From Candidatus Woesebacteria bacterium RBG_16_42_24 (lineage in GTDB: Bacteria > Patescibacteriota > Microgenomatia > UBA8517), in contig MGFX01000006.1 in the NCBI GenBank assembly GCA_001792115.1, forward strand, positions 146,537 to 210,536: 64,000 nucleotides of DNA. Direction: 5' to 3'. The notes under the pieces are model-generated. The model saw only the letters and a program-made list of their open reading frames with translations, had not been told where the DNA came from and did not search any database. A program made the position numbers and the translations under genes. Numbering within the stretch: the stretch's first letter is position 1; every line of letters begins with the position of its first letter. Shown here piece by piece: positions 1 to 55,639 of the stretch.

Positions 1-105
1 CGATTGGAAGCTATTTCTGTATTAAGTAAAAGATTAAGTAGGGAGGATTATCCCAGGAGAATTATCTTTGAATCTAAAATATTGCTAAAGCAGATCTATT
101 TTTGA
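1..105 (+). CDS. possible 3' end of a gene truncated by the window edge
   Basis: Open frame from base 1 (RLEAISVLSKRLSREDYPRRIIFESKILLKQIYF) ending TGA at 103-105; no recognisable motif. Confidence 0.3.
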   Translation, partial: RLEAISVLSKRLSREDYPRRIIFESKILLKQIYF

Positions 106-565: not shown

Positions 566-2341
566 CTACCAACTTCCTCCTCCCCCTCCGCCAAAACCAC
601 CTCCAGAGCCTCCCCCACCTCCAAAACCTGATCCCCCACTCGCGGCACCCTTTGGCCTTGAGGCAGAAATTCCCGAGCCGAGTCCGGTATTAATATAGCC
701 AAGAGAGGCGTTAAAGTGAACGATATTTAAATTAGTTCCATGATACCAATTCAAGTTTTTAATATCAGCGTCTTTGAAGGCTTGAATAAACTTTTCGGTT
801 ATGCCAAAGGCGATAGCGTAAGGAAGAACCTCCTCAAAAAAGTTGTGTTTCTCATAGATTTTCGTTCGCCAGGAGCCTAAGTTTAGAACTTCTTTAAAAC
901 CTACTATTTCGGCTAAAGCCTTTCTTCCTTTACCAGTCCTTGCCGGCATAAAAAATGAGAAGGCGATGATAATAAGTCCTGAACCTATAAAAGCAATGAA
1001 AAAAGAGGCGGGGCTTACGATAAATGGTGCAATTCCGCCTCCCAAAAAAAATCCCGCAAAAATAGTGATTATTCCCACTGCCAAGTACTTATTTCTAACC
1101 TCGTCCGGCCGGCCCTCAAAATAGCCATTCATAGTTAGATCTTCATATAGATTCTTTTCCGCCTCTTTCAAGCTTTGGTAGGCTTTTGGATGGAGTTTGG
1201 TTAGTACCGCGGGAATATCTCGCTTTTCGCTAAATAACATATCAAGAACTGAAAGCTCGTAGGGCTTTAAGACCCCCTCATCTTTTTTGGTATAGTGAAG
1301 GGTAAACTTAGTTTTTCCGAAAAGCCCTTTTTTTGATTCCTCTTCGATTTTTATAAATCCTCGCCTCGCCAAATCTATGACTGTCGCCGTAATGTCTCGA
1401 AGGTGTGCTTTCTCGTCTACCAAGGTTCCAACTTCTCCCGGAGATAAATTCCTAGGGGGACTCACGCTTGTTGATATTGCGTTCAGGTTCTCCAAAAGTG
1501 GAACAGGCTCCTCCCCCAGTTGCTCGTTGAAGATGTCGATGAATTTTTTATCACGACCCTTTAGCATATAAAGCCTAAACATGATTATTAAGACCGCAAT
1601 CGGGACCAAATAAAGCCAATTGTCCAAAAGAAAAATGAGGAGTTTTTGGGCTGATGTGGGGAAAGTTAAGGCGGATTTATCAAGGGCAACTGCAACTGTT
1701 AAACCTTGTTGGGGGTCAACATTTTTTGTAGTGAACGTGGCGGTATCTCTCTCCGAGGTCTTTGTGCAGTTTTCTTCTTGACTACCGAAATAGCCGGTAA
1801 AACAGGCGGTATTTATGAGGCTTCCGTCTGGAGTATAGACGTTGGCAGTTGCAGAAAGTATCGAGACAGGCCAATCGTTACCGGTTACATTCCAATAGAG
1901 CTCGGCAGACTCACCTGGCGTGGTAATAACCTGGCTAACTTTGTAGGTGATTACGTAGGTATTTCTCCCTGTTATTGTCAGATCCGGATCGCCGATTCTA
2001 ATTTTTGTGTTATTTCCTTCCTTGGTGATTTTTGTTTCTAACTTCTTCCCACCGGAATCCGTGACAGAGAGAAGGTTGAGGCGAATATTTAAGTTATTGC
2101 CATATTGTGTTTGGTATTTGACGGGGATTGTCCGATAAATTCCATGCTTTTGCAACCCCGCAAAGTCCACGATTATCGTTTCCGTGACGCCAACCGTGGT
2201 GTCTTGATTAACTCTAATGTCCGCCTTAAAGCTTTCAATTATCCAACCAGTATCATCTTGGGCATAGACTTTTCCTTGGGTTGCAAGAAAGAAAAGAAGA
2301 AAAACACTAAACACGCTAAAAATTTTCCTTAAAAGGAGCAT
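566..2341 (-). CDS. DUF2207 family membrane protein
   Basis: Signal peptide, HGIYRTIP and LYWNVTG.DW motifs, TM helices, LPYAIAFG, Gly-rich GGGFGGGGGGSW C-terminus. Confidence 0.85.
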   Translation of the reverse strand: MLLLRKIFSVFSVFLLFFLATQGKVYAQDDTGWIIESFKADIRVNQDTTVGVTETIIVDFAGLQKHGIYRTIPVKYQTQYGNNLNIRLNLLSVTDSGGKKLETKITKEGNNTKIRIGDPDLTITGRNTYVITYKVSQVITTPGESAELYWNVTGNDWPVSILSATANVYTPDGSLINTACFTGYFGSQEENCTKTSERDTATFTTKNVDPQQGLTVAVALDKSALTFPTSAQKLLIFLLDNWLYLVPIAVLIIMFRLYMLKGRDKKFIDIFNEQLGEEPVPLLENLNAISTSVSPPRNLSPGEVGTLVDEKAHLRDITATVIDLARRGFIKIEEESKKGLFGKTKFTLHYTKKDEGVLKPYELSVLDMLFSEKRDIPAVLTKLHPKAYQSLKEAEKNLYEDLTMNGYFEGRPDEVRNKYLAVGIITIFAGFFLGGGIAPFIVSPASFFIAFIGSGLIIIAFSFFMPARTGKGRKALAEIVGFKEVLNLGSWRTKIYEKHNFFEEVLPYAIAFGITEKFIQAFKDADIKNLNWYHGTNLNIVHFNASLGYINTGLGSGISASRPKGAASGGSGFGGGGGSGGGFGGGGGGSW

Positions 2342-2389
2342 AATACTAATTTATCATATAATCTGATACTCTAAAGGCATAATCTTTGG

Positions 2390-3157
2390 ATGAAAGCCAT
2401 TAAAATCCTATTTTTATTTCTTCTACTTATAGCAGTCGGGGTAGTAATGTTTAAAATAGGCAACGCAGTTCCTAAAAAAGAAACACCACTCCCCGCTCCT
2501 AAAGTAATGGGGGTATCGGAAGTTGTAGTGGCCGGCGAAGAATATTCCTTTACGACCATTAAAGTGACAGATGCTTCAAGAGTAAAACTTTTGCCGAACT
2601 TTTTGGAACAAAAGACGTCAGAAGAAATTATTAATGAAGGAAGATGTAAAAATTTGGTGAACGGAGGATTCTATTCGGAGAAATTTACACCCATTGGACT
2701 TTTTATAAGTGAGCGAGAAGAAATACAAAAGAGACAGATAAATGCAACATTTAACGGATTTTTTCTAGTAAGCGAAGGAAATATTCCTGAGATTTTAAGA
2801 GAGACTCGGGATGAGGAATATAGAATTGGTCTTCAAGCTGGCCCTATCCTCATTTTGAATTCCACCCCTTTAATACTTAAGCTTAAAGAGGAAGAGCAGG
2901 AGAAAGATAGAAGGGTTATTGTCGCGCTAAATGATAAAGGAGAGACATTTTTTATTGTCGTATTTACACAAAACTCTGTTTTTTCAGGACCGACCCTAGC
3001 ATCTCTACCTGAACTTTTACAAGAAGTTCAAAATTCCTTAGGCGAAAATTTTGTTTCTGCGCTAAACCTGGACGGAGGTGCTGCATCAACTTTTTGGGGT
3101 GAGGGGGCAAGACTCAAAGAGCTATCCCCTATCGGAAGTTACTTCTGTATAAACTAA
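2390..3157 (+). CDS. phosphodiester glycosidase (NAGPA-like) family exported protein
   Basis: N-terminal TM; NGGFY, QAGPIL and ALNLDGGAAS motifs. Confidence 0.75.
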   Translation: MKAIKILFLFLLLIAVGVVMFKIGNAVPKKETPLPAPKVMGVSEVVVAGEEYSFTTIKVTDASRVKLLPNFLEQKTSEEIINEGRCKNLVNGGFYSEKFTPIGLFISEREEIQKRQINATFNGFFLVSEGNIPEILRETRDEEYRIGLQAGPILILNSTPLILKLKEEEQEKDRRVIVALNDKGETFFIVVFTQNSVFSGPTLASLPELLQEVQNSLGENFVSALNLDGGAASTFWGEGARLKELSPIGSYFCIN

Positions 3158-3178
3158 TATCTCGCGCAGGAAATGGGG

Positions 3179-3679
3179 TTAGTGTTTTCTTGTCAATCTG
3201 TCTATTTCGTTTTCGTGTTCCTTAACAAACCAGTTGTCTAAATATGGCAGATACCTAATCTGTAAATCTTTCGGCAACTTGAAAAAATTGCCTTGATATA
3301 CTCCTCTACAATTTTTACTTCCACAATGACAATCAAAAGTTCCATCGTTATATCCATTTATAGAATAATCATAAGTAATTTCATCGCCTTTTTTAATATC
3401 TTTCATCGCAAAAACTTTCCTTTTACCTTCTATTGTTTTTACATAAGTTGAGGAGTCACAAGAGTGATTGATGTGTCTTTCCGGAGGTTGCATCAAAACT
3501 ATTTTCCCATCGGCTAAATAGTCGCATTCATACTCATGTTGGTATTTTGTTAATTTGGAAGGATCTTTTACTGCGTGCGAGTCATTAATTTCTAAAACAA
3601 TTTCTCCTTTTTTGATGTTTTCTAAAGCATATACGCCTTTTCCTTGAATTTTAGAAACTTTTACTGTAACCCTTTTCAT
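3179..3679 (-). CDS. SET domain protein-lysine methyltransferase with post-SET cysteines
   Basis: GKGVYA, INHSCD, EITYDY, CHCGSKNCRG motifs. Confidence 0.9.
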   Translation of the reverse strand: MKRVTVKVSKIQGKGVYALENIKKGEIVLEINDSHAVKDPSKLTKYQHEYECDYLADGKIVLMQPPERHINHSCDSSTYVKTIEGKRKVFAMKDIKKGDEITYDYSINGYNDGTFDCHCGSKNCRGVYQGNFFKLPKDLQIRYLPYLDNWFVKEHENEIDRLTRKH

Positions 3680-3740
3680 AATTGAAGTATATTTAGAAAT
3701 TTTTAAACACCCGAAGGAAATGGGCCCCTATGTTTGTCTT

Positions 3741-4070
3741 TTAGAACAGCTTGCCACCAAGCGGAACATCTTTGTCTGGTACAACAAGAATTGCTTTTCC
3801 TTCTTCATCAGGAAAACCCAAAGTTAGGACTTCTGATACTGCGGGTCCCATCTGAAAAGGTGGAAGGTTCACAACTCCTGCAATTAACCTTCCTTTAAGT
3901 TCTTCTTTTTTGTAATGAGTGAATTGACCGATTGATTTTTTGACTCCGATTTCCGGGCCAAAATCTACCTCCATCTTGTAACATGGTTTACGCGCCTCGG
4001 GGTAATCCTCAACCTTTACAATTTTTCCCACCCTTATGTCAAGTTTATTGAAGTCGTCAATAGTAGCCAT
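3741..4070 (-). CDS. csaA: tRNA-binding OB-fold protein / CsaA chaperone
   Basis: DFNKLDIRVGKI, VDFGPEIG, VVNLPP..MG..SEVLTLG, G.KLF. Confidence 0.8.
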   Translation of the reverse strand: MATIDDFNKLDIRVGKIVKVEDYPEARKPCYKMEVDFGPEIGVKKSIGQFTHYKKEELKGRLIAGVVNLPPFQMGPAVSEVLTLGFPDEEGKAILVVPDKDVPLGGKLF

Positions 4071-4227
4071 TTCGAATATTATAGCAGTTTAATTTTTAGA
4101 GCCCACGCAGGAAATGGTTTTGAAATTGGGGGCCTGCTTACAGGGACGGTCCTTGTAAGCGACTACCAAAGCTGACGGTTGCATATCTGAATTTTTCCTA
4201 AACACCGGAAAAGATATAATAATAACT

Positions 4228-5091
4228 GTGATTATAAAAGGCAAAAAAGAATTTATTGACCAGATAACGAAATTCGACATAAAGACCAAATATGCAGTTG
4301 TAAAACCTAATTGGAAAAGTAACCATGAAGGCGAATTCACCGAGCCAGAAATACTTAGCTGGCTTTTTGAGGCTCTGCCAAACCAGAAAAAGATTGTCGT
4401 AGAAAGCTATACTCCCTGGAGAGGATTAAAATTTATTGAATCCGATTCTCATAAAGGAAAGGGAGTAACTCTTGATGGTGGTAAGGCTCACTGGGATTTC
4501 TACAAGGAGCAAGACCAGCATTTTTTAGGTACAACAGGAATAGGTAACGTATTAAAGAAACACAAAGTAGACTATATAAATATTACAAACGAAGTTTGGG
4601 GTGGAAAATGTATTGGTCCGGAGGTTATAAAAAAGGAAGTTACTGATAAGAAAGAAAGGATTACGTGGGAGGAGCTCTACTCCTATATACCTCAAAAACT
4701 TTATCAAATACGAAAATCGTCAACGCTAATCAGCTTGTCCAAAATTAAAATTGAGGAGGGTATCCAGGCAATCTATATTAGTATGTCAATAAAAAATCTT
4801 TTTGGACTTATTCCCCATCCATCTCGCTGGATACCTTTCCACGGAGAAAATCACGAGTCGGTATCAGAGGTAACGCGCGATATTTACACACTCTACACGC
4901 TTTTATTCGATAAGACCCTCTGGGTTGCTGAAGGCATTAAAACTTTAGTTAGAAATTATTGTGAGCCTCACCAAAAGGTGGTCGAAAATCAAAACTTATT
5001 ATTCGTTGGTCGGAGTGCAAAACAAGTTGATTCTGAAGCCTGCAAAATTCTTGGAATAGACCCCGCTAAGGTTCCCCATCTCCACTTATAA
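4228..5091 (+). CDS. DUF362-like protein
   Basis: VVKPNW, LISLSKIK, SMSIKNLFGLIP motifs typical of DUF362. Confidence 0.6.
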   Translation: MIIKGKKEFIDQITKFDIKTKYAVVKPNWKSNHEGEFTEPEILSWLFEALPNQKKIVVESYTPWRGLKFIESDSHKGKGVTLDGGKAHWDFYKEQDQHFLGTTGIGNVLKKHKVDYINITNEVWGGKCIGPEVIKKEVTDKKERITWEELYSYIPQKLYQIRKSSTLISLSKIKIEEGIQAIYISMSIKNLFGLIPHPSRWIPFHGENHESVSEVTRDIYTLYTLLFDKTLWVAEGIKTLVRNYCEPHQKVVENQNLLFVGRSAKQVDSEACKILGIDPAKVPHLHL

Positions 5092-5138
5092 CTACGTAAG
5101 AAAATTCACACTACTCGCGCAGGAAACGGTCTTCGTCT

Positions 5139-5819
5139 TTATGCTAAGACATAATCCGCGTAAGCGATTGTAAGAAGCTCGTCTTCGACTATTTGCATCT
5201 CTGCAAGCCTTATGTCCTCTTCGCTGTACTCTTCATCTGGCCCGAGCTCTAAACGGTCTCTAACCATAAAATCTGTTGGTTTGTAGTGGTCTGGAAACAC
5301 GCGTTTTGCAACAAGAATGTCTTTCAGAAAAGCCGACCATTCCACCGTCTCACTACTTTGGGTCAAACTGCTTTTCTCGATGGAACCAACCTCTTTTGCC
5401 AAGTCTCTAAGTGGTTGAGGAATCCTATGCCACCCTGCGGGCTGCCTGCTATTTCGTATTACCTTTTCACCGCCGCCTAAATCTTTACCAATGAGTATTG
5501 TGGGGAAACCTCTGGCATTAACCGGAGTTAGAACAAACCCGACTGAAATTCCGCCGTCAGGCGTTTTGACGGAGAACTGCTTAGGATCTGTTTGCACAAT
5601 TCGAATTGCAAGGAGTTTGTTATCGATTGTCGGAATGGAGAAAAACTTTTCTCCCAAAACCCAGCCGCCAAACTGCCTAAAGTCGTAGCCCGGCCAGTCG
5701 CTAAAATCCCAATCACTACCTTCAGGTTCGGCTCCGGTAAGATAGTCCTTATTGGACATAATTTCACCAAGGATATCCGAAAACGAAAGCGTGGTTTCCT
5801 CTTCTTCTTTCCCTGCCAT
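5139..5819 (-). CDS. hypothetical protein
   Basis: 226-aa ORF filling the gap between repeats A4 and A5; TATAAT upstream. Confidence 0.6.
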   Translation of the reverse strand: MAGKEEEETTLSFSDILGEIMSNKDYLTGAEPEGSDWDFSDWPGYDFRQFGGWVLGEKFFSIPTIDNKLLAIRIVQTDPKQFSVKTPDGGISVGFVLTPVNARGFPTILIGKDLGGGEKVIRNSRQPAGWHRIPQPLRDLAKEVGSIEKSSLTQSSETVEWSAFLKDILVAKRVFPDHYKPTDFMVRDRLELGPDEEYSEEDIRLAEMQIVEDELLTIAYADYVLA

Positions 5820-5886
5820 ATATTTTTAGAAAAAGTGAGGGAAATTATAACATAAATAATTCGGAGGCCGCGCAGGAAATGGGGCC

Positions 5887-6165
5887 TTATGCCGAAGATT
5901 GAATTTGGAGTTTCTTTTCAACTTTTGAAATTCTAGGTTCGTGATCTTCATAAACTTTATGAGTTAATATTTCCTGCCCTTCTCTTATTACCTTGAGCTC
6001 GCCCATTACCTCATCCATTTTTCCATAAAATTCATCTTTTGTTGGAAGGTGACTGATATCATCTTTAGTTGCGATTCTGTTTTCAATAGCATCATCCAAC
6101 CGTTCGTCAAATGTAACTTCCATTAAGTCTTTAATCGCCATGAGATCTTTGTTTGTAAGTGCCAT
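5887..6165 (-). CDS. small coiled-coil hypothetical protein
   Basis: IATKDDISHLPTKDEF repeat and HEPRISKVE tail; 92 aa. Confidence 0.65.
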   Translation of the reverse strand: MALTNKDLMAIKDLMEVTFDERLDDAIENRIATKDDISHLPTKDEFYGKMDEVMGELKVIREGQEILTHKVYEDHEPRISKVEKKLQIQSSA

Positions 6166-6262
6166 AGCGCTATTTAACTATAGAACGCCTATTTCGTCAA
6201 GCAAAAGATATGTGGCCCGCGCAGGAAATGGGGCCTCAATGTATCCAATTTGGTAAACTTAC

Positions 6263-7255
6263 TTGATGGATAAAAATATAAAGCCGGGTTACAAAAAATA
6301 TTTGGCTTCAATGCACGGAAAGTTTATTACCCCCGATGATGTGATTAGAGAGGTTGTAAAAGAGGGGGCTGGTAATTTGGTATCGAAAAAACGAATTATT
6401 GCAGGCGAAGTGAGTGAGGTATACAACATTATTTTAGAAAACAAAAAGCCCGTAATCCTTCGAATTTCAAGAAGTCCACGGCCAAACTTTCTTCAAGATA
6501 AGTGGGCAATGGAGCAAGTCAAAAAGCTGGGTGTTCCTGTTCCTGAAATCCTACTTATTAAATACCTAATTGTTGGGAATCAAGAACTTTCCTTTTGTTT
6601 AATGGAGAAAGCGGAAGGAAAATCACTCGAGAGGGGGGGCATAAATTTTGAATCGCTTCCCGAAGCAATAAGGAAATCGTATATCTTACAAGCTGGAGAA
6701 ATTCTATCCAAAATTCACTCCATTGAAACCCTAGGTTTTGGATGGATTATTGGAGAGGGAAAGGCGGAATACAACACCTCTGAAGAAATTATTGACGAAC
6801 TGTTAAAAAGAAAAGAGAGGATATATAAGGTCGCTGATGCTCAAAAGTTTGATCGACGGCTTGTCGACGAAGCCCTGGACATTGTAGGCAGATTCAGGGA
6901 AAGATATTCTCACATTAACCCCCACCTAAACCATGCAGACTACGGGCACAAGCACTTTATGGTAAAGAAGGGAAAAATTGTGGCTGTTTTGGATTGGGGT
7001 GGAGTACGAAGCGATTCACCAATATATGATTTCGCTAATTGGGATTATTGGTACGGGCATTACATTCCGACCAATTGGTTAAAAGAAGGCTACCAGAACA
7101 AACAACTATTTGACGAGAATTTTGAAGACACCCTTCACGTTATGAGAATCATGAAAGGGATAGAAATAGCCGATTGGTACGAGTCGCAAAACTATGGAGA
7201 GGCAGTTGAAAAAGCACTTGCCAAGTTGACCGATGACTTGAATTACTTCAAGTGA
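6263..7255 (+). CDS. aminoglycoside phosphotransferase / choline kinase family protein
   Basis: GVPVPEIL, HADYGHKH (HxD catalytic loop), VLDWG, PIYDFA. Confidence 0.8.
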   Translation: MMDKNIKPGYKKYLASMHGKFITPDDVIREVVKEGAGNLVSKKRIIAGEVSEVYNIILENKKPVILRISRSPRPNFLQDKWAMEQVKKLGVPVPEILLIKYLIVGNQELSFCLMEKAEGKSLERGGINFESLPEAIRKSYILQAGEILSKIHSIETLGFGWIIGEGKAEYNTSEEIIDELLKRKERIYKVADAQKFDRRLVDEALDIVGRFRERYSHINPHLNHADYGHKHFMVKKGKIVAVLDWGGVRSDSPIYDFANWDYWYGHYIPTNWLKEGYQNKQLFDENFEDTLHVMRIMKGIEIADWYESQNYGEAVEKALAKLTDDLNYFK

Positions 7256-7297
7256 TTATTAGCATTTAAGCGCTTACAGCGAAGGAAGTGGGACCAT

Positions 7298-7648
7298 TTA
7301 GCCTTTTGAAGCTATCAAACTAATTTCAATTTTCGCACCCATTGGCAGCTCCTTCACACATACAGTTTCTCTGGCTGGATAAGGTTCCGAAAAATAACTT
7401 CCATAAATTTCGTTAACATCCCCGTATAAGGACATGTCTGTTACATAAATCGTGGTTTTAACAACGTCGGCAAAAGTCACACCCGCTTTTTCAAGTACCC
7501 CTTTCAAATTTTTCATTACCTGATGGGTTTGCTCTTTTATACTTCCCTCCAAAAGTTTTCCCTCCGGAGTCAAATAAACCTGACCTGATGTAAAGACAAA
7601 ATTGTCTTTTGTAACGGAGGGAGAAAAAGGGAGTTTTGGGTGACCCAT
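7298..7648 (-). CDS. RidA/YjgF/YER057c family imine deaminase
   Basis: PFSP, FTSGQ, VVKTTIY, YPARETV, LPMGAKIEI. Confidence 0.9.
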   Translation of the reverse strand: MGHPKLPFSPSVTKDNFVFTSGQVYLTPEGKLLEGSIKEQTHQVMKNLKGVLEKAGVTFADVVKTTIYVTDMSLYGDVNEIYGSYFSEPYPARETVCVKELPMGAKIEISLIASKG

Positions 7649-7696
7649 ACGAGCTGATTATATCAAAACCTGTGTGCAGGAAGTAGGTTCTTGTAA

Positions 7697-8242
7697 TTAT
7701 TCCAGAAGATATTCCCAGCCTGGTTGCCAAGCTTTTTTCTTTCTCCAATCCTCGGCAAAAGCTTGCTTCCAAGTTTTTCCTTTTATAAGTACATCCAAAG
7801 CCAGCTGAGGTGCTTTATGGGCAACAATGGCGACATGTTTTCCATCGTAATTTTCTTTTAAGAAATCCAAAAAATCCTGAATTCTTTTCTCAACATCTTC
7901 GTAGCTTTCACCATTGGGAAACCTTTTTGTAATATTTTCTTCTTGCTTCGGCTCGACAATCTTCGATGGTTTGCCGTTTAAATCCCCATAATTACACTCA
8001 CGTAATCTCTTATCGTAAATAATTTCAACAATCCCGCCAAAAGTGAGATTTGCTGAATCTGCCGATCTTTTCAAATCAGAACAGAAGACAACATCAAATT
8101 TCTTGCCCTTTACTTGCTTTCTCAGCTCTTTCGACTCCCGTACTCCTTTTTCAGAAAGTTCTGCATCCGACCAACCAGAAGATATCCCCGTCTCATTATC
8201 GGTAGTTGTCCCATGAACAAAATATGTAATTTTTACAGGCAT
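7697..8242 (-). CDS. histidine phosphatase (PGM-like) family protein
   Basis: VHGTT (RHG variant), SDLKRS, LRECNYG, GES, VAH. Confidence 0.85.
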   Translation of the reverse strand: MPVKITYFVHGTTTDNETGISSGWSDAELSEKGVRESKELRKQVKGKKFDVVFCSDLKRSADSANLTFGGIVEIIYDKRLRECNYGDLNGKPSKIVEPKQEENITKRFPNGESYEDVEKRIQDFLDFLKENYDGKHVAIVAHKAPQLALDVLIKGKTWKQAFAEDWRKKKAWQPGWEYLLE

Positions 8243-8251
8243 AAATAAATT

Positions 8252-8407
8252 TATGACATCCTCCGCGGACTAAAAGTCCGCGGTTTCCCTTCAAAGGAGG
8301 ATGATACTTCGACAAGCTCAGTATCATTCTGAGTATTATCGAAGAATGACATATCAGTTTCAATTCATCCCCGATTTAATCGGGGTGTTCTTGAAATCTG
8401 TTATAAA
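8252..8407 (+). mobile_element. miniature two-hairpin repeat (IS200/IS605-end-like), copy 2, with nested REP-like pair
   Basis: ATGACAT + CCGCGGACTAAAAGTCCGCGG hairpin ... ATGACATATCAG + CCCCGATTTAATCGGGG hairpin; homologous to 483-548 and 49319-49428. Confidence 0.6.
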
Positions 8408-8451
8408 CTTGATTTATTCTACTTCGGGGCTAATTTGAAGACAAATTATTT

Positions 8452-9102
8452 CTACAATATTTTCTTAATTTCTTTTAATTCTTTAATCATTTTGAAGGCT
8501 AGTGACTCCAGCTCGGGGTGGGGATCTTTGTTGACGGCAATGCCGTAGTGAAGTTCTCGGAAAAGTGCTATGTCGCTATCACCGTCTCCGATTACGGAAC
8601 ATCTCTCTTTCTCTATATTATTTCTTGAAATAAATTCGTTAAATTGCTCAAGCTTTTTTGCCGCCTGGTCAGCATAATAATTAAGATCCACTAGGTTGCC
8701 CTCTTTATCCCAAATTAAATCTGTATTTGCATACCAGTGGGGTATACCCAGCCTTTCTGCAATGGCCTCGACATAAAGGTCAACAGATCCGGAAATTAAA
8801 CACAGTCGGTAGAACTTTTTAAGATACTCTACAATTTCAACTACATCCTTTTTAAATTTCCAAGATCTAAACATTTTTTCCATATATTTTTTATTCGCGT
8901 TTCGCGTACTTCTCCAAAGACCAATTAATTCTTTCTTTGCGTCAAGGTAAGACAACTTACCTTTTCTGAAACGTTCTTCAAATATATCAACATGGGTAGC
9001 ACGGGAAGCTCCCAACCCTTCGGTGATTTCGTACCAGGAAATGGTTTCAGTCAAAGTCCCGTCTATATCTAAAATAACTGTATCAATTTTTTCTTTTAGC
9101 AT
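8452..9102 (-). CDS. HAD-superfamily hydrolase (phosphoserine phosphatase-like)
   Basis: DIDGTL motif I, ISGS motif II, K motif III, GDGDSD motif IV. Confidence 0.85.
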   Translation of the reverse strand: MLKEKIDTVILDIDGTLTETISWYEITEGLGASRATHVDIFEERFRKGKLSYLDAKKELIGLWRSTRNANKKYMEKMFRSWKFKKDVVEIVEYLKKFYRLCLISGSVDLYVEAIAERLGIPHWYANTDLIWDKEGNLVDLNYYADQAAKKLEQFNEFISRNNIEKERCSVIGDGDSDIALFRELHYGIAVNKDPHPELESLAFKMIKELKEIKKIL

Positions 9103-9169
9103 TCTTTTTCAAAATTTTATCACGATCCTGAGTTTTACCGAAGGACTCCGAAGCTACTTTGAAGACAAA

Positions 9170-9589
9170 TTATTTTATGGATTCTTCGAATTTTTTGTGA
9201 GGAGAGTCCGGCTGAGCTTGGACCATTTCTAATTTATTTCCCTCTGGGTCAAAAAGAAATGCTGTAAGATTATTGTCTCGCAGTTTTAAAATTTCAGAAT
9301 CAAAAGCCACCCCCCTCCCCTCCATTTCTTTCTTGGTATTGGCTAGATCATCAACAGTGAAGCTTATGTGACGAACTCCCAGACTTTTTGTATCATCGAA
9401 GACTGGTCTTTTTTCGCCGCCTAAGCAAAGTTCTAAATATTGTCCTTCGGAGATATGAAGAAAGACTATTCTTAAAGACCCGTCGTCATTCGTAATTCGG
9501 AAAGCCTCGGTCAATCCCAATCCCCTGCAATAATAATCCAGCATCTTATCAATGTCTTTTACTCTTATAGCGACGTGTCCAAATCTCAT
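9170..9589 (-). CDS. VOC/glyoxalase family protein
   Basis: HVAIRVKD, YLEL, HISFTVDD, DPEGNKLE. Confidence 0.9.
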   Translation of the reverse strand: MRFGHVAIRVKDIDKMLDYYCRGLGLTEAFRITNDDGSLRIVFLHISEGQYLELCLGGEKRPVFDDTKSLGVRHISFTVDDLANTKKEMEGRGVAFDSEILKLRDNNLTAFLFDPEGNKLEMVQAQPDSPHKKFEESIK

Positions 9590-9627
9590 AGATTAATTCT
9601 AAGTTGGAACCGATCTCAAGACAAATT

Positions 9628-10083
9628 TTAAAATCTGCTTTCGAGCCAGAGCTTGGTGAAGAAGATTGTAAAAATTATAGAAACTACAGTGACACACTGC
9701 CAGATTATTTGGTGTATAAACCAAACAGAATCATTATGGAAAATGGAATGAAACGGAAGCTTTTCGGGCGGATTTCTGTTTATAGTGGAGAATTGCTGGT
9801 TAAACCAATAAATAGTTTCACCCAGACTTCTAACCACCCAAAAAACGGAGATAATTAGAAGGAATAAATACCAGTCGTTTAGCAAATAAGAAACCAGCGA
9901 AGAAGCAATCCAAAATGGGCCAAAAACGACCGCATCTCCCCAAGCGATAATTCCTAATAGATTAAGGTTTGGAGTAAGGCCGTAAGCGTTTTTGCGATAT
10001 TTACATTCATAATATCCCTTCACAAATACCCCAAGATTTACCAGAGCGTAGGCCCAAATAACGAGTTGCTGCCAATTCTCCAT
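9628..10083 (-). CDS. hypothetical membrane protein
   Basis: 151 aa with ~4 hydrophobic helices; TACAAT 6 nt upstream of ATG. Confidence 0.7.
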   Translation of the reverse strand: MENWQQLVIWAYALVNLGVFVKGYYECKYRKNAYGLTPNLNLLGIIAWGDAVVFGPFWIASSLVSYLLNDWYLFLLIISVFWVVRSLGETIYWFNQQFSTINRNPPEKLPFHSIFHNDSVWFIHQIIWQCVTVVSIIFTIFFTKLWLESRF

Positions 10084-10122
10084 ATCTGAATTGTACCTCG
10101 GAGCTAATTTGAAGACAAATTA

Positions 10123-10488
10123 TTAAGTCTGATTTGCGGTTTCTTTATAAGCAGAAAATAAATGGTTTATAGCTTGCTTAGCCATACGTTTATCTTGAAT
10201 TAACTCCCACATAACAATAGCTCCTTGGAGACCAAGTAATAATTTGTATAATGAATACGGGACGGTCTGCGGATTACCCATTATCTCCTGTCTTGCCTGT
10301 GCCCAACTGATAGCGATTTCCCTGGGTGATATATGCTTATCCGCTATTCTTTCGACAAGGACTCTACAAACATCGTAAGGGTATCCACTAGCCAGTGAAC
10401 TATGCTTCCTGAGACGGTGCATTAACTCGCCAGAAGATGGCATATTTATTACCTCTTCCACCTCTCCGACCCTTTTTGCTTCAATCAT
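10123..10488 (-). CDS. hypothetical protein
   Basis: 121-aa ORF, extended -10 TGATATAAT 7 nt upstream. Confidence 0.55.
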   Translation of the reverse strand: MIEAKRVGEVEEVINMPSSGELMHRLRKHSSLASGYPYDVCRVLVERIADKHISPREIAISWAQARQEIMGNPQTVPYSLYKLLLGLQGAIVMWELIQDKRMAKQAINHLFSAYKETANQT

Positions 10489-10520
10489 GAAAAGAATTAT
10501 ATCACTATTTAGAGTGAATT

Positions 10521-10787
10521 CTATTTTTTGCCATCGAGACGGGCAACTGGTTTTACCCCCTTAAAAGTGCCGTTTAAAAATTGAGTTACTAGCCGGTTTA
10601 CTTTTTCTCTATATAACCAGGCGTAAGCGGAACTAAGTGTTACCTTGGATGAATGTAAAGAGCTTCCGGAAATTAGACGTACATCTTCAACGGTAGGATG
10701 GATACCTCTTTTTATGGTTTGGACAACCAAAATAATATCATCTCGAGATGGTAAATGACTTCTCTCGTGCATAATTTTTGCGGGCAA
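10521..10787 (-). CDS. hypothetical protein
   Basis: 88-aa ORF; TTG start 6 nt after the TAGAAT of repeat B5. Confidence 0.5.
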   Translation of the reverse strand: MPAKIMHERSHLPSRDDIILVVQTIKRGIHPTVEDVRLISGSSLHSSKVTLSSAYAWLYREKVNRLVTQFLNGTFKGVKPVARLDGKK

Positions 10788-10902
10788 TGGCTAATTCTAC
10801 TCCGAAGCTAATTTGAAGACAATAATTTAGCTTAAGTCTAAAATTGGTTAAGTAGGCTTCACTAGACATTTAACAATCTAAGGTAAATAATTGCTCTGAA
10901 AT

Positions 10903-11595
10903 ATGGAACTAAAAATACACGATTTTCAATTATCAATTCTGCGGGAGCTTCTTTTTAGACCCAACGCGCGCTTTCGGGATTTAAAGAAAGTAGATATTAC
11001 GAATGACCACTTTACTTTTCATTTAAAACAGCTGGTTAAGGAAGGATTGGTTATAAAACAAAACAAGGTTTACAGTCTTACAGACGAAGGAAAAGAGTTT
11101 GCAAATAGAATGGATACTGAGGCACTTAGGATTGAGAGACAGGGGAAAATAGCAGTCGGGCTTCATGCGGTAAGACTTAGAAATGGTAAGACGGAACACC
11201 TTGTACATCAAAGGCTTAAAGAACCCTTTTATGGCTGGTACGGATCCCAGAGCGGAAAAGTAAGGTGGGGAGAAAATCCTTTGGACTGCGCTAAAAGAGA
11301 ATTTAGAGAGGAAACCGGGCTTACAGGAAAATTTACACTTAAGGGAATTGTTCACTACCACCACTTTCATCAAGACGGAAGGTTGCTTGAAGATAAATAT
11401 TTTTGGATTTATAAGGTGGAAAACACAAAGGGAGATTTTATGGAAGAGGTCCCAGAGGGTAAAAATATATGGATAAGTGAGGCCAAATATCGAAAACTGA
11501 AAAACGTTTTTGCAACTTTTGACGAAGTTCGCGAGGTATTAAATAGTAAAAAGCTACTTTATTTAGATAGAGCAAGATTTGTTAAGAGCTACTAA
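10903..11595 (+). CDS. winged-HTH + Nudix hydrolase fusion
   Basis: N-terminal wHTH (FTFHLKQLVKEGLV..YSLTDEG); Nudix box GKVRWGENPLDCAKREFREETGL. Confidence 0.85.
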   Translation: MELKIHDFQLSILRELLFRPNARFRDLKKVDITNDHFTFHLKQLVKEGLVIKQNKVYSLTDEGKEFANRMDTEALRIERQGKIAVGLHAVRLRNGKTEHLVHQRLKEPFYGWYGSQSGKVRWGENPLDCAKREFREETGLTGKFTLKGIVHYHHFHQDGRLLEDKYFWIYKVENTKGDFMEEVPEGKNIWISEAKYRKLKNVFATFDEVREVLNSKKLLYLDRARFVKSY

Positions 11596-11649
11596 AAAGC
11601 TCTCGGTGAGGTTTTAGGTCTTTTCCCCGAAGCTACTTTGAGGACAACC

Positions 11650-13890
11650 CTAGCTGGTGACCGAGACTCGGTATTTTTTGCTCTGCCAGATTCCCCAGAC
11701 GAAAATCGCGATAAGAACGGCAATTGCCACTTTTGCCCCAAAAGTTCCGTGGTACTGGACGATAACCGGCGCGGCAATAAGGCTGACCAGGTTCACAACT
11801 TTAATCATAGGGTTAAGCGCAGGTCCGGCAGTATCCTTTAGTGGATCCCCTACCGTATCTCCCTCAACCGAAGCCTTGTGGGCGTCAGATCCCTTACCTC
11901 CAAAGTGGCCGTCCTCGATAAACTTCTTGGCATTATCGAGTGCGCCTCCGGCAACAGACATATAAACTGCTAAAAGTTGTCCCGTGAGTATTACTCCCGC
12001 AAGAAATGCTCCCAAAGCCTCAACTTCGAAAATAAGTCCCACAAGCAGTGGCAGGGAAACCGAAATAGCCACCAAACTTATTAAGTCTTTTTGGGCTGCG
12101 GCGGTTGTGATACTCACAACCTTTTCGTATTCGGGAGTTTTGGTCCCTTCCATTACCCCAGGAACCTTAAACTGTTTTCTTACTTCTTCAACCACCTTAA
12201 TGGCTGCTCTTGCAACAGCCTTAATGGCAATTGCGGCAAAAAGAAGGGGCAAGGCTCCCCCCAGCAAAAATCCAATTACGGTTGGAAGAGAAGAAATTCG
12301 AATTGATTCAAGAACCTGAACTCCTATTCTTTCCTGTACGATCCCCACGTCTGTTATGAATGAAAAGAAAAGGGCGGTTGCCGCAATAACCGCGGAAGCA
12401 ATTGCCAGCTGTTTGGTTATCGCTTTGGTGGTATTTCCAACAGAGTCCAAGTCCGCCATTATTTTTGCTGCGCTTTCGGGAACCCCAGCCATCTCCCCTA
12501 TTCCGTTGGCATTATCTGCAATTGGTCCGAATGCATCCATCGCTACGTTATTTCCGGTCAGGGACAACATTCCAATTCCGATCATCGCTACCCCGTATAA
12601 CATGTAAATGGGCGGCATTCCCCAGTAGATAAGAAGGCTTGAGGCAAGGGCCGCGCAAATTACGAATACGCTCCAGACCGAAGATTCCATACCAACCCCG
12701 AGACCCGAAAGGATTGTGGTTGCACTTCCGGTTTTGGTTGACTCCGCAATCTCAAGAACGGGCCGCCTCTTGTAAGAAGTGAAGTAAGAGGTAAGAGGAT
12801 TAAATGCAACCGCCAGGGCGATTCCGACGGCATTAAGAAGAGCTAGTTTCCACTCCCCCGCATAAAACATTGCAAAGGCAAAAGCCGAAAGAACCGTAAA
12901 AACACTTGAGAGTTCATAGCTTCTAAACATGGCTTCTTCCGCGTCTTTAGCACGCAGCCATTTCGCTGGAAATTTTTCCCAAATGGGAACGGCTAGCGTT
13001 CCGATGATTGAGGAAACAACTCCAATTGCGCGGACCACTAAGGGGTAAACTATCCAGAAAGACTGACCCGTTAAGTGATAAAGAACAAGCCCTAAAATTA
13101 AAGAAGAAACAATTGTTACTTCGTAAGACTCGAAGATATCGGCTGCCATTCCGGCGCAGTCCCCGACGTTATCCCCGACAAGGTCTGCTACAACCCCCGC
13201 ATTTCTCGGATCATCCTCGGGTAAGTTTTTCTCGACTTTACCCACAAGGTCTGCTCCCATGTCAGCGGCCTTGGTATAAATTCCTCCCCCTATTCTCATA
13301 AAAAGGGCAACGAGTGTTCCTCCGAAACCAAAACCCAGAAGTGCGTCGGGCGCAGCTTTGCCAAAAACCATAAATATAATTGTTCCCCCGAGAAGCCCGA
13401 GTCCGTCCGTAAGCATTCCGGTAAATGTTCCCGCCCTGTAGGCTGTAGTTAAGGCGCCGTTATAATCCCCTTTTACTGCCTTTGCGGTGACCCTCACATT
13501 TCCCTCAATGGCAACCCTCATTCCGAGTTGTCCGACAAGAGTGGAGAAAGTTGCACCAACAATAAAGGCGATAGTTCGGCCTAAAGCGACTATCAAAGTT
13601 GCATTGTCGCCAAATCTGGCAACTGCTTCGCTAGACGGCGGAACAACGTAGACGCTTAAGAAGAGGATCACAATTAATGCAAGAAGCACAAGAGTAATTG
13701 TTTTTAGTTGTTTTCTAAGGTACCCCTCCGCTCCCCGCTTAATAGCTTTCCAGACGGTTTGCATTTTTTCGGTGCCCTTATCCTCTGAAGAAGTTTTCTT
13801 CCAAAGCCAGAGGGCATAGATAAGGGCCGAAAAGGCAACGCCTATTACTCCCCAAATCATCATTTGCTCAAAAGCGGCTAATTCATTCAT
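11650..13890 (-). CDS. hppA: membrane-integral ion-translocating pyrophosphatase, K+-independent type
   Basis: GGIYTKAADMGADLVGKVE, DDPRN, DNVGD, GNTTKA, GDTVGDPLKDTAGP. Confidence 0.95.
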   Translation of the reverse strand: MNELAAFEQMMIWGVIGVAFSALIYALWLWKKTSSEDKGTEKMQTVWKAIKRGAEGYLRKQLKTITLVLLALIVILFLSVYVVPPSSEAVARFGDNATLIVALGRTIAFIVGATFSTLVGQLGMRVAIEGNVRVTAKAVKGDYNGALTTAYRAGTFTGMLTDGLGLLGGTIIFMVFGKAAPDALLGFGFGGTLVALFMRIGGGIYTKAADMGADLVGKVEKNLPEDDPRNAGVVADLVGDNVGDCAGMAADIFESYEVTIVSSLILGLVLYHLTGQSFWIVYPLVVRAIGVVSSIIGTLAVPIWEKFPAKWLRAKDAEEAMFRSYELSSVFTVLSAFAFAMFYAGEWKLALLNAVGIALAVAFNPLTSYFTSYKRRPVLEIAESTKTGSATTILSGLGVGMESSVWSVFVICAALASSLLIYWGMPPIYMLYGVAMIGIGMLSLTGNNVAMDAFGPIADNANGIGEMAGVPESAAKIMADLDSVGNTTKAITKQLAIASAVIAATALFFSFITDVGIVQERIGVQVLESIRISSLPTVIGFLLGGALPLLFAAIAIKAVARAAIKVVEEVRKQFKVPGVMEGTKTPEYEKVVSITTAAAQKDLISLVAISVSLPLLVGLIFEVEALGAFLAGVILTGQLLAVYMSVAGGALDNAKKFIEDGHFGGKGSDAHKASVEGDTVGDPLKDTAGPALNPMIKVVNLVSLIAAPVIVQYHGTFGAKVAIAVLIAIFVWGIWQSKKYRVSVTS

Positions 13891-43113: not shown

Positions 43114-44865
43114 TCATAAACTCTTGGTTTCAATCTCTTTTCTTATATTACCAATAAATTTGTCAATTGAAAGTGCTCCGGAATCTTTACCGCTTCTACC
43201 ACGCACAGAAACCGTTTTTTCCTTCTCTTCTTTATCTCCTAAAATGAGCATGTATGGAATTTTTTGAATTTGAGCGTCTCTTATTTTGGCTTGCAACCTT
43301 TCGTTTCTTTCGTCTAGCTCTGCTCGAATACCATTTTCTTTGAGTTTCTCCCAAACGCTCTTGGCATAGGAGAGATTTTTGTCGGTAATTGGAAGTACTT
43401 TAACTTGAACCGGAGAAAGCCAAACGGGAAAGTTTCCTCCCCAGTGCTCGATGAGGAAGGCAATAAAGCGCTCGTGCGACCCAAGGGGCGCGCGGTGGAT
43501 AATAACGGGAGTTTCTTCTTTGCCGCTTTTATCAACATATTTTAAGTTGAACCTTTTTCCCATAAATAGGTCAATCTGGTTTGTTGAAATTCCGAATTCT
43601 CTACCAATTGAGGAGCGGATTACGAAATCAATCTTTGGGCCGTAAAATGCGGCGCTTCCGATGTCCTCGACCATTTTGATATCAACTTTACCTGCAGCCT
43701 CACGCATCAGCCCCTCTGCGAGTTTCCACATATCCTCGTCTCCATGGTATTTTTTCTTGTTTGTTGGATCCCTTAATGAAAGAACCAAATGGTATTCAGT
43801 AATCCCTAAGGTTTTATAATAGTATTCGTGAAGCCTCATGACGTTCACAAATTCCCCGACAGCTTGCTCTGGGGTACAGTAGATGTGGGAGTCGTTTTGG
43901 CTGAACCCCCGCACCCTCATCATACCGAAAAGCTCTCCTGAGGCCTCATAGCGGTAGCAAGTCCCGTACTCTGCAAGCCTTAAAGGGAGTTCTTTATAGC
44001 TTCTTACCTTCGACTTATAAATCATGTGGTGGTGCGGGCAGTTCATGGGTTTGAGATAATATTCCTCTCCCCCCTCCCCCTTCATCGGAGGGTACATGTC
44101 GTCTTTATAATAAGGGAGGTGGCCGGATGTAAAGTAAAGACCCGACTTTGTGATATTGGGAGTGGTGACCCTCTGATATCCCCAGGCTTCTTCGGTTTCC
44201 TTGGCCCACTTTTCAATCTCCTCTTTAATGATGTTGCCTTTGGGGAGCCAGAGGACGAGTCCGGGTCCTACTTCCTCGGAAATGGTAAAAAGCTCGAGTT
44301 CTTTACCAATTTTTCTGTGGTCGCGTTTTTTTGCCTCCTCAAGGTCGGCCAAATATTTGTCTAATTCTTTTTGAGTCGCAAAAATAGTTCCGTAGATACG
44401 CGTAAGCATGGTGTTTTTCTCGCTTCCTCGCCAATATGCCCCCGCGACAGAAAGAAGTTTGAAGTATTTAATTTCTTTGGCTGGATTATCTATGTGGCCA
44501 CCCCGACAAAGATCAATAAAATTTCCGGATTGATAAACCGTTATGTCCTGGTTATCTTTTTCAAATTCCCTAATTAGTTCGAGCTTATATTGGTTGTCCT
44601 TGAATCTTTCCTTGATCGCATGAATCGATTCATGAAAGCGCCTGAATTCCTTCCAATCTTTTACAAGCTGGTGCATTTTTTCCTCTATTTTTACTAAATC
44701 TTCCTCCGAAATTTTGGTATCAGCGAAGTCAAAATCATAGTAAAAACCATTCTCTATTGGAGGCCCGAGGGTAGGCTTAGCATTTGGCCACAATGAAGTT
44801 ACCGCCGCAGCCAAGAGGTGCGAAGTTGAATGTCTCAAATTATCTAAATTATTCTTCGTTGCCAC
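43114..44865 (-). CDS. thrS: threonine--tRNA ligase (no N-terminal TGS domain)
   Basis: LRHSTSHLL, DLCRGGH, RDHRKIG, KPMNCPHH, YGPKID, GSHERF. Confidence 0.97.
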   Translation of the reverse strand: MATKNNLDNLRHSTSHLLAAAVTSLWPNAKPTLGPPIENGFYYDFDFADTKISEEDLVKIEEKMHQLVKDWKEFRRFHESIHAIKERFKDNQYKLELIREFEKDNQDITVYQSGNFIDLCRGGHIDNPAKEIKYFKLLSVAGAYWRGSEKNTMLTRIYGTIFATQKELDKYLADLEEAKKRDHRKIGKELELFTISEEVGPGLVLWLPKGNIIKEEIEKWAKETEEAWGYQRVTTPNITKSGLYFTSGHLPYYKDDMYPPMKGEGGEEYYLKPMNCPHHHMIYKSKVRSYKELPLRLAEYGTCYRYEASGELFGMMRVRGFSQNDSHIYCTPEQAVGEFVNVMRLHEYYYKTLGITEYHLVLSLRDPTNKKKYHGDEDMWKLAEGLMREAAGKVDIKMVEDIGSAAFYGPKIDFVIRSSIGREFGISTNQIDLFMGKRFNLKYVDKSGKEETPVIIHRAPLGSHERFIAFLIEHWGGNFPVWLSPVQVKVLPITDKNLSYAKSVWEKLKENGIRAELDERNERLQAKIRDAQIQKIPYMLILGDKEEKEKTVSVRGRSGKDSGALSIDKFIGNIRKEIETKSL

Positions 44866-54391: not shown

Positions 54392-55639
54392 ATGTTGGCT
54401 TTCAATCCCAAACCCTCAACCATAATGCACCTGGACCTTAATTCCTGTTTTGCGACGATTGAGCAACAGGCAAATCCGCAGCTTCGGGGCAAACCCATCG
54501 CGGTTGCCGCCTACACCACCCCATCCGGTTGCATCATTGCCCCTTCGGTTGAGGCCAAAAGATATGGGATCAAGGTCGGAATGAGGGTCAAAGACGGCAA
54601 ACTTCTCTATCCAGGCTTGATAGTTCTTTCTCCCGACCCATGGAAATATAGAAACGTACACCTTGCCCTTCGAAGAATCGTTTCCGATTATACCGACAAA
54701 TTTGTGCCGAAGAGTATTGATGAATTCGTTTTAGACCTAGAAGGATACCCCTGTTTAGTAGCAAGTAGTATGCAGCAAGTAGCAAGGGAGATTAAGGAGA
54801 GAATCAAGGAGGAGATCGGAGAATGGCTGACGGTTTCAGTGGGAATTGCCCCAAACAAATTTCTTGCCAAAACTGCAGCCTCCCTCCATAAACCCGACGG
54901 GTTGGATGAGATTGATAAAGAAAACTTTGCCAAAGTTTATTCGGGCCTTAAACTTACGGAGCTATGTGGGATAAAACTTCGAAACGCAGTTCGGCTAAAC
55001 AACATGGGCATATTTAGCGTTTTGGATTTCTTCGAGGCACCATATCCTAAGCTGAAGGCTGCCTTTGAATCGATCCTTGGATACTATTGGTATTTGCGCT
55101 TGCGAGGTTGGGAAATAGACGACGTTGTTTTTGGCAGACGCTCATATGGCAATTCTTTCGCCCTGCCTAGGCCATTAGTAACAGTTGAAGAGCTCTCTCC
55201 TGTTCTTTCTAAACTCGTTCAAAAAATGGGAGCAAGATTTAGGCGGGCTGGATATAAAGCCAAAGGAGTTCATTTGGCAATCGCCTACCGGGACGGAACA
55301 TTTTGGCACCAGGGAGTTACAACCACAAGAATCTTATTCGACAGCAGGGACATTTATAGAGTCGCATTTAGACTTCTTAATCGAAGTCCCTATAGAAAAG
55401 CTGTCAGGGAGCTCGCCGTATCGGTTTTTAACTTGATAGATGAGCCGTCTTTGCAGCTTGAACTATTTGACGACCTAAGGAAAAAGGAGCGAATAGTGAA
55501 TGCGGTCGATGCCGTAAATGAACGCTGGGGAGACTTTGTCATAACTCCAGCTCGCATGCTTGGAACTAAAAATGCCGTAATTGACAGAATCGCCTTTGGC
55601 GGAGTCAAGGAACTCGAGGAATTTACCCTTCGATATTAG
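54392..55639 (+). CDS. dinB: Y-family DNA polymerase (DinB/PolY type)
   Basis: HLDLNSCFATIE, SVEAKRYG, SIDE, LAKTA..KPDG, QLELF clamp motif. Confidence 0.9.
   Translation: MLAFNPKPSTIMHLDLNSCFATIEQQANPQLRGKPIAVAAYTTPSGCIIAPSVEAKRYGIKVGMRVKDGKLLYPGLIVLSPDPWKYRNVHLALRRIVSDYTDKFVPKSIDEFVLDLEGYPCLVASSMQQVAREIKERIKEEIGEWLTVSVGIAPNKFLAKTAASLHKPDGLDEIDKENFAKVYSGLKLTELCGIKLRNAVRLNNMGIFSVLDFFEAPYPKLKAAFESILGYYWYLRLRGWEIDDVVFGRRSYGNSFALPRPLVTVEELSPVLSKLVQKMGARFRRAGYKAKGVHLAIAYRDGTFWHQGVTTTRILFDSRDIYRVAFRLLNRSPYRKAVRELAVSVFNLIDEPSLQLELFDDLRKKERIVNAVDAVNERWGDFVITPARMLGTKNAVIDRIAFGGVKELEEFTLRY

Follow-up and report, generated by a model that had tools for sequence, protein, structure and literature searches.

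A lineage-specific platform of gene cassettes bounded by two unlike tags in Candidatus Woesebacteria

Results

Organization of the array

We analysed a 64,000-nucleotide stretch of the genome of the groundwater organism Candidatus Woesebacteria bacterium RBG_16_42_24 (GenBank assembly GCA_001792115.1, contig MGFX01000006.1, forward strand), here called the window, in which 14 accessory genes stand between a NAGPA-like gene and an hppA-like gene, separated by copies of two unlike short direct repeats, tag A and tag B. The source genome is 873 kb long and 98% complete. In our labels, where G denotes a genome, C a contig and L a fetched locus, the window is G000:C6:146537-210536; coordinates without a label are counted from its first letter. 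We read this array as a lineage-specific cassette platform that is real and apparently undescribed.

The core of tag A is CGCGCAGGAAATGG, with seven clear copies at 3163, 3710, 4104, 5116, 5869, 6218 and 7278, and that of tag B is GCTAATTTGAAGACAA, with five clear copies at 8429, 9153, 10103, 10807 and 11632, a number reached in 0 of 100 shuffles even when the whole window was counted. Each family has one further, decayed copy, which brings the totals to the eight A and six B same-strand copies reported in an earlier note on this DNA. The A copies span 3161-7691 and the B copies 8419-11649; every copy is intergenic and lies on the + strand, including those beside three reversed genes. The earlier note had also seen one repeat in almost every gap; that at 10488/10521 has none. 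At one position weight matrix (PWM) cut-off, the 873-kb genome holds seven A and five B sites inside the array and one A and no B outside it, confirming that the motifs are not common intergenic words. The repeats are thus genuine. The array is slightly AT-richer than its flanks (GC content 38-40% versus 41-45%), and it is no misassembly, because contigs from public runs match it without differing letters: those of run X1, which is perhaps the source run, are identical to the window over 2000-8282 and 8298-13000, and those of X4, X7 and X9 likewise over long pieces. At Rfam gathering scores, the window contains four tRNAs only, none of them near the array.

At the left edge, the NAGPA-like gene (2390..3157, + strand, PF09992) is followed 3 nt past its stop codon by site A1 (3161..3181, +), the outer left end of the platform, which takes the same position in G001, L059 and L062. 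The A part then runs through a SET-domain gene (3179..3679, -, PF00856), A2 (3708..3728, +), a gene for a CsaA-like tRNA-binding protein (3741..4070, -, PF01588 and TIGR02222), A3 (4102..4122, +), a reversed DUF362 gene (4228..5091, +, PF04015), A4 (5114..5134, +), a gene for a 226-amino-acid hypothetical protein without a Pfam or NCBIfam family (5139..5819, -), A5 (5867..5887, +) and a gene for a 92-amino-acid hypothetical protein (5887..6165, -) with a 53% identical homologue within the C9 array of G084. Beyond A6 (6216..6236, +) lie a reversed APH-family phosphotransferase gene (6263..7255, +, PF01636), which scores far under any resistance-gene cut-off, A7 (7276..7296, +), a RidA-family gene (7298..7648, -, PF01042), which stands directly after A1 in same-genus G001, the decayed site A8 (7671..7691, +, PWM score 13.8), where homology to G001 stops, and a histidine phosphatase gene (7697..8242, -, PF00300).

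The B part opens with B1 (8419..8449, +), which on the - strand presents a -35 box (8439-8444) and, 17 bp on, a -10 box (8416-8421). It continues with a HAD hydrolase gene (8452..9102, -, PF00702 and PF12710), B2 (9143..9173, +), a VOC/glyoxalase gene (9170..9589, -, PF00903) with a 75% homologue behind a B site in G012, the decayed B3 (9590..9630, +), which fits a long form of B with an insert in its loop, and a gene for a 151-amino-acid membrane protein (9628..10083, -). Then come B4 (10093..10123, +; on the - strand, -35 box 10113-10118 and -10 box 10090-10095), a two-gene cassette encoding hypothetical proteins of 121 and 88 amino acids (10123..10787, -), B5 (10797..10827, +; on the - strand, -35 box 10817-10822 and -10 box 10794-10799), a reversed gene for a winged helix-turn-helix (wHTH)-Nudix protein (10903..11595, +, PF00293 and PF14947), and B6 (11622..11649, +), the outer right end, which lies in the same place in G001; only 2 nt separate its core from the stop codon that closes the right-flanking gene. 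This flanking gene (11650..13890, -) is a presumed hppA-like membrane pyrophosphatase gene.

Between the two parts lies a cluster of small palindromic repeats (8252..8407, pieces of which recur on C1, C2 and C6), which the earlier note took for the element at which A gives way to B. Its repeats are found at several other places in G000, and since relatives make the A-to-B switch without the element, we regard it as a passenger.

The NAGPA-like gene is the second of two tandem paralogues (43% identical) that flank ATP-cone and DUF2207 genes (window 1-28 and 2390-3157; L085:15771-16565), and the array follows this second copy only. Far downstream, the gene at 54392-55639 is, judging by its sequence motifs, presumably a DinB/UmuC-like Y-family polymerase gene.

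The platform in relatives

In G019 and G022 the NAGPA-like gene directly adjoins hppA, with no tag between. The same-genus genome G001 has the layout NAGPA-A-RidA-AAA ATPase-B-hppA; it lacks the six genes found between A1 and the RidA gene in the window, and homology stops at A sites. Its B-side cassette is a lone AAA_15/AbiEii-type ATPase gene, possibly for defence (L021:1567-3012). Three of six metagenome loci repeat the G001 layout as far as they extend, and L059, L062 and L063 carry different cargo behind the same first site. In L062, an 82% homologue of the 151-amino-acid gene of the window ends at B beside another neighbour, a racemase gene; L063 carries a hybrid site that joins the left portion of A to the right portion of B. 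The earlier note had proposed aligning this locus across relatives: gene content and order do differ, with breakpoints in the repeats.

A second locus, between a DUF5667 gene and a CAAX protease gene, also occurs in both states. Four genomes have a short, tag-free gap there, and G084 and G085 have A-to-B arrays whose cargo differs in part; these arrays were inserted behind the upstream stop codon and ahead of a promoter-like stretch, which stays intact. Since the empty gaps are tag-free and the filled ones run from A to B, the tags arrive with the inserted unit. The outer edges of arrays are sharp: on the left they fall a few bases before A, and on the right 0-10 bases past the B core. At the empty site of this second locus, no target duplication could be clearly made out.

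Among the 139 genomes of the order (Candidatus Woesebacteria), B is present in 14, which belong to 12 of the 91 genera, and its copies cluster at gene-sized spacing; a reversed control of the pattern gave one match in the 139 genomes. The B core was found in none of 250 other genomes sampled across the phylum, and the long form of B in none of 400 sampled across the class. Viral contigs gave no match to three B patterns and one A pattern; the three matches of a second A pattern, all inside coding sequence, look like chance and were set aside. From B-bearing genomes and metagenome loci we collected 24 stretches, which occupy at least six unrelated places, with up to three arrays per genome. Scored at one cut-off with matrices derived from these same stretches, and with the order and relative strand of A and B left free, they gave 152 sites (56 of A, 84 of B and 12 of a long form of B), every one on the same strand. 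Strict A-then-B order is kept in 16 of the 18 stretches that hold both tags, although kin genomes and shared cassettes are not independent cases. In four arrays the last A and the first B stand 28-29 bp apart with no cargo between them. Because A and B travel together in fixed order at at least six loci, they are two parts of one platform and not the two independent hotspots that the earlier note had suggested.

At least four further arrays of small genes in G000 have other direct-repeat families. They lie at G000:C1:132700-137300 (beside tRNA-Asn), C1:277200-283500 (after rpsJ in a split S10 operon), C4:10300-17400 (beside tRNA-His) and C7:51800-52900 (where the last codons of an ftsZ-like gene are copied). 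The repeat at C1:277 kb is like B in layout, a site followed by a -10 box; a second motif suspected in the C1:277-290 kb array was dropped as a common -35-like word. Arrays bounded by repeats are therefore general here; what sets this one apart is the pairing of A with B in that order.

As a separate observation, the thrS genes of G000 (window 43114-44865) and same-genus G001 are only 51% identical and stand apart in a tree, which suggests replacement by transfer. The thrS tree (30 rows; G063 had no match), tried as a host tree, was dropped since it separates these two genomes, and it says nothing on inheritance.

Breakpoints and cargo

Homology blocks shared across genera frequently extend from one tag to the next and have different neighbours on either side, as do a nitrilase gene (G012/G063/G139), two cassettes (G084/G085) and a toxin-antitoxin pair (G063/G140); many other blocks end within genes, as expected at about 75% identity. 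Sites with a common right-hand gene share the bases to the right of the core, and those with a common left-hand gene the bases to the left. In the blocks shared by G085 and G140, which are 97-100% identical, the matching stretch sets in with the opening bases of the B core. Since flank sharing and this onset of identity both point there, the crossovers lie inside the cores, which are 12-16 bp long. The repeats are thus junctions of mobile one- or two-gene cassettes, much as the earlier note had supposed. The same gene can be bounded by either tag: the histidine phosphatase gene is an A-type cassette here and a B-type one in G012 and G063, an HTH/Gp49-RelE pair likewise varies by genome, and the wHTH-Nudix gene, bounded by B here, has a 77% homologue in the A part of the G084 array.

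For 6 of the 14 window proteins there are 53-92% identical homologues in other arrays, and cassettes are shared between genera. Tags hug the ends of genes, the adjoining stop codon lying no more than 8 nt from A in 31 of 47 cases and within B or no more than 9 nt away in 42 of 62. Cargo comprises Nudix, SET, GNAT, HAD, EamA and methyltransferase genes and many toxin-antitoxin pairs. Erm-like rRNA methyltransferase genes stand in or beside the G085 and G139 arrays (L078:6629-7438, L066:5471-6244 and L084:9672-10475), scoring 201-202 bits against a broad Erm model and just missing its cut-off of 212.

Tag anatomy and a putative promoter half

B does have a hairpin, a 7-bp dyad around a 4-base loop; the earlier note had said that the repeats lack the attC hairpin. 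A and B are not inverted copies of each other, apart from a 5-bp word. In 12 copies (in G140, G084, G085, G068 and G023) B takes a long form, whose loop contains a hairpin of 17-19 nt. The small palindrome of this form also interrupts a copy of a tRNA 5' end in G084; at L164:12448-12510 it splits a tRNA-Leu 5'-end copy 200 bp upstream of the intact tRNA. Core variants track lineage more than cassette: position 3 of A is C in G000, G001 and G015 and G in the others, and position 5 of B is C in all four G012 copies.

Read in gene direction, short B holds the hexamer TTGTCT, a likely -35 box. A TAnnnT (-10) box stands 16-18 bp from it at 25 of 58 B sites that face a gene start, 21 of them at exactly 17 bp, and at 0 of 20 that face a gene end (Fisher p 1.6e-4, for copies that are not independent). 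The sequences thus support the view that short B supplies a -35 box that would pair with a -10 box borne by the cassette.

Discussion

A working model

These data suggest a two-site cassette platform in which a trans-acting enzyme recombines A only with A and B only with B, a reading to which we give a probability of roughly one half. Like-with-like exchange is proposed because no simpler reaction would give a cassette new neighbours on both sides without mixing the order of the tags. An array is founded when a unit of A, cargo and B enters a tag-free gap, usually right behind a stop codon, as the empty sites show. Cassettes then acquire new neighbours through breakpoints within the cores. Single cassettes might be excised or inserted between like tags, or incoming DNA might replace any A-to-B stretch through two like-with-like crossovers; both reactions would preserve A-then-B order. 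The promoter of the next gene would consist of the -35 box of short B and the -10 box of the cassette. The DNA may arrive by natural uptake, ComEC and a type IV pilus operon being present, and the enzyme may be an integrase that visits the genome, most plausibly one of those targeting tRNA ends, which are common in the family: 14 of 20 large serine recombinase loci fetched from array-bearing genomes abut a tRNA 3' end. A fuller statement, in which natural cassettes are exchanged at two heterospecific sites by an undescribed recombinase or by host uptake and joining, and in which B turns the captured gene on, we consider possible rather than probable; we put the chance of a new mechanism at about one in three.

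A number of results weigh against an enzyme of this kind, and we gather them here. No recombinase was found inside the arrays and no enzyme was found to track them, and the 179 representatives of 276 cargo and flank proteins yielded no recombinase family, the single transposase-like gene among them being an IS30-like open reading frame in the G051 stretch. Searched with the queries used, the 98% complete genome G000 has no match for a large serine recombinase, resolvase, IS110, rve or Cas1, the integrase family of CRISPR-like and casposon arrays (and none to PF07508, PF00239 or PF01867). Its only two PF00589 matches are Xer-like tyrosine recombinases, best matched by XerC/XerD/XerA models and of a kind present in all 139 genomes. 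Large serine recombinases occur in 95 of the 139 genomes, with no match in array-bearing G139, G015, G068, G051 and G000; at none of the 20 loci fetched from array-bearing genomes does the enzyme adjoin a convincing A or B site. Known large serine integrases, moreover, join unlike rather than like sites. A double-stranded att site would fit poorly with an insert of 17-19 nt tolerated in the middle of B. No circle junctions were seen in the public-run data, which are assembled contigs in which rare variants drop out. Finally, two arrays (G139 C4 and G023) break the order of the tags, with what looks like a second A..B unit.

The large serine recombinase genes of Woesebacteria at L096-L115 mostly run into antisense tRNA 3' ends (Asp, Leu, Asn, Gln, Val, Pro, Glu, Lys, Ile and Ser). 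Several other candidates were set aside. In G044, a remnant of such a gene lacking its catalytic domain lies about 500 bp past the last B (L077:6463-7590); its tail motif, which recurs inverted 1.5 kb on, differs from both A and B and so adds to the case against. A 270-amino-acid tyrosine integrase (L146-L151), beside trmD in five of six loci and without flanking cargo, occurs in G138, G085 and G044 but also in genomes without a B match, has no tag close by and is missing from G000. The pair of Y1-type transposase genes that G000 does possess is flanked by small repeats of another kind, and no link to A or B was seen by eye. Contig joints at tags were not used, since their sides of 30 letters or fewer, or short matches, probably belong to other organisms. 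As for integrons, attC sites carry the boxes RYYYAAC ... GTTRRRY, and a complementary RYYYAAC/GTTRRRY pair 30-140 nt apart was found on neither strand at any of the 14 window sites; against the IntI model TIGR02249, the two tyrosine recombinases score 126 and 46 bits, far below the cut-off of 265. In this respect the earlier note, which had seen neither attC nor integrase, was right.

A possible trace of the enzyme is the likeness of A to the antisense 3' end of tRNA-Ser of other class genomes. An A-derived pattern matched in 92 of 299 class genomes (unpublished G203 left out), with tRNA-Ser at or near the match in 16 of 17 loci checked, a modest likeness that is partly circular, the tRNAs having been found with that pattern. 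The tRNA-Ser genes of G000 itself do not match A, and against the tRNAs of G000 three of 300 shuffled motifs scored as high, which also counts against a link; B had no match among those tRNAs. Of 29 array loci scanned, 28 are free of tRNA, the nearest, in L081, standing 2.5 kb from a B site. On this sequence likeness we give near even odds that A derives from a tRNA-Ser end. The ideas that A is the coding tail of an integrase, or B an in-register tRNA T-arm, were dropped, as no gene with such a tail was found.

Alternative explanations

The arrays may need no dedicated enzyme: DNA taken up by competence and anchored by long homology, in a flank or a shared cassette, might be joined at an identical 12-16-bp tag by host recombination, the tags persisting since they make genes spreadable and, for B, expressed. 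We hold this to be the strongest of the alternatives, though somewhat unlikely. Like-with-like order would follow automatically, no recombinase tracks the arrays, and G000 encodes ComEC and a type IV pilus operon; the lineage-specific core variants are what homogenisation predicts, long-form B marks a breakpoint too, and transfers between genera are 97-100% identical. It leaves unexplained, however, the founding insertions into tag-free gaps with their sharp outer ends. A stretch of 12-16 bp is short for RecA, and A has no promoter role, yet most positions of its core are 90-97% conserved although cassettes are only about 75% identical.

It is less likely that the tags mark the ends, A on the left and B on the right, of a transposable unit that is non-autonomous; with each new unit inserted into the centre of the last, the ends would nest, and a row A...A B...B would arise with no exchange between like tags. 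In favour, arrays have sharp boundaries immediately outside A on one side and B on the other, G001 and L062 hold minimal units of A, cargo and B, the tags of four arrays stand 28-29 bp apart with no cargo, and both order exceptions look like a second A..B unit. Against it, exact B-to-B and A-to-A cassettes recur with both neighbours different, and A:B counts are as unbalanced as 6:1 and 1:6. Neither a transposase enclosed by the tags, nor inverted repeats at the termini, nor a clear duplication of the target was found, and strict central targeting would be an extra assumption.

That the tags are dif-like sites of host XerC/D-like recombinases is very unlikely. B also admits a two-arm reading, in which an inner dyad of 6 bp encloses a 6-bp spacer, the first A is about 7 kb away from an Xer-like gene, and the G000 array sits where the cumulative GC skew of the contig levels off. 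Both enzymes are nevertheless present in 139 of 139 genomes and B in 14, no conserved B-like single site was found in five complete genomes, arrays on five other contigs show no skew switch, and up to three arrays occur per genome. A 19-nt insert is also tolerated in the putative spacer, and on distribution, skew and insert we rejected the idea of terminus or dif sites.

Least credible is that the tags are purely regulatory motifs, promoters or factor-binding sites of co-located accessory genes with no role in movement: short B and a cassette-borne -10 box do make a good sigma-70-type promoter, but the tags keep their orientation beside reversed genes, where 0 of 20 have a -10 box, they are all but absent from the remaining genome, and they coincide with the homology breakpoints that largely refute this view already.

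Relation to known systems

The two-site platform resembles several known systems in part. Composite islands of the SCCmec type that lack ccr likewise hold tandem modules with 15-18-bp direct repeats and two site types and are moved in trans, by the large serine recombinases CcrAB or CcrC; they use rlmH as one fixed target and have kilobase modules and known ccr genes, none of which was found here. The pdif modules of Acinetobacter plasmids are one- or two-gene units, toxin-antitoxin pairs included, with short sites and an enzyme encoded elsewhere, but they have XerC/D 11-6-11 sites in alternating orientation, and here 152 of 152 sites point one way and lack Xer arms. In recombinase-mediated cassette exchange, like-with-like crossovers between unlike, co-oriented sites swap the interior and keep the order; this is an engineered laboratory method, and the resemblance is one of logic only. 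To our knowledge, neither integrons nor pdif modules nor tRNA islands have anything like the fixed order of A before B.

By the definitions given in Cury et al. 2016 (PMC4889954), integron arrays and integrase-less attC clusters (CALINs) are alike in holding single accessory genes (Nudix, GNAT, VOC, HAD, toxin-antitoxin), each ending at a recombination-type site by its stop codon, mostly co-directional, shuffled between genomes and often with no integrase nearby. Here, in contrast, no IntI, attC boxes or long palindrome was found; two unlike sites in fixed order replace attI and one attC class, each short B carries a putative promoter half in place of a single Pc, and cassettes, some of which are reversed, often carry a -10 box themselves. 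The tycheposon-built islands of Prochlorococcus, as outlined in a preprint (bioRxiv 10.1101/2020.12.28.424599), likewise have direct repeats of the attachment motif between successive arrivals, and the likeness of A to a tRNA-Ser 3' end recalls such tRNA-end islands; the arrays differ in having no tRNA at their ends, no integrase in the units found, gene-sized units, a second unlike tag and many unrelated loci. A search of the literature on Woesebacteria and integrons, to which subscription papers and supplements were not open, returned no paper, and in the literature searched no title or abstract opening described such arrays. In a recent survey of gene exchange in Patescibacteria (PMC12455944), the words integron, cassette, recombinase and integrase do not occur in the main text.

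The platform bears on how Patescibacteria with genomes below 1.5 Mb gain and trade accessory genes. The exchanged units, the pair of tags at their borders, sites both empty and occupied, and nearly identical transfers across genera are all defined here, so the route can be tested with short synthetic sites. The A-then-B polarity suggests either a recombinase that has two orthogonal sites and would be a useful tool, or self-reinforcing tags that ride on natural competence. If the fuller statement above is true, different genera of ultra-small bacteria would draw on a common set of accessory genes, among them toxin-antitoxin pairs and genes for Erm-like methyltransferases, without integrons, plasmids or phages.

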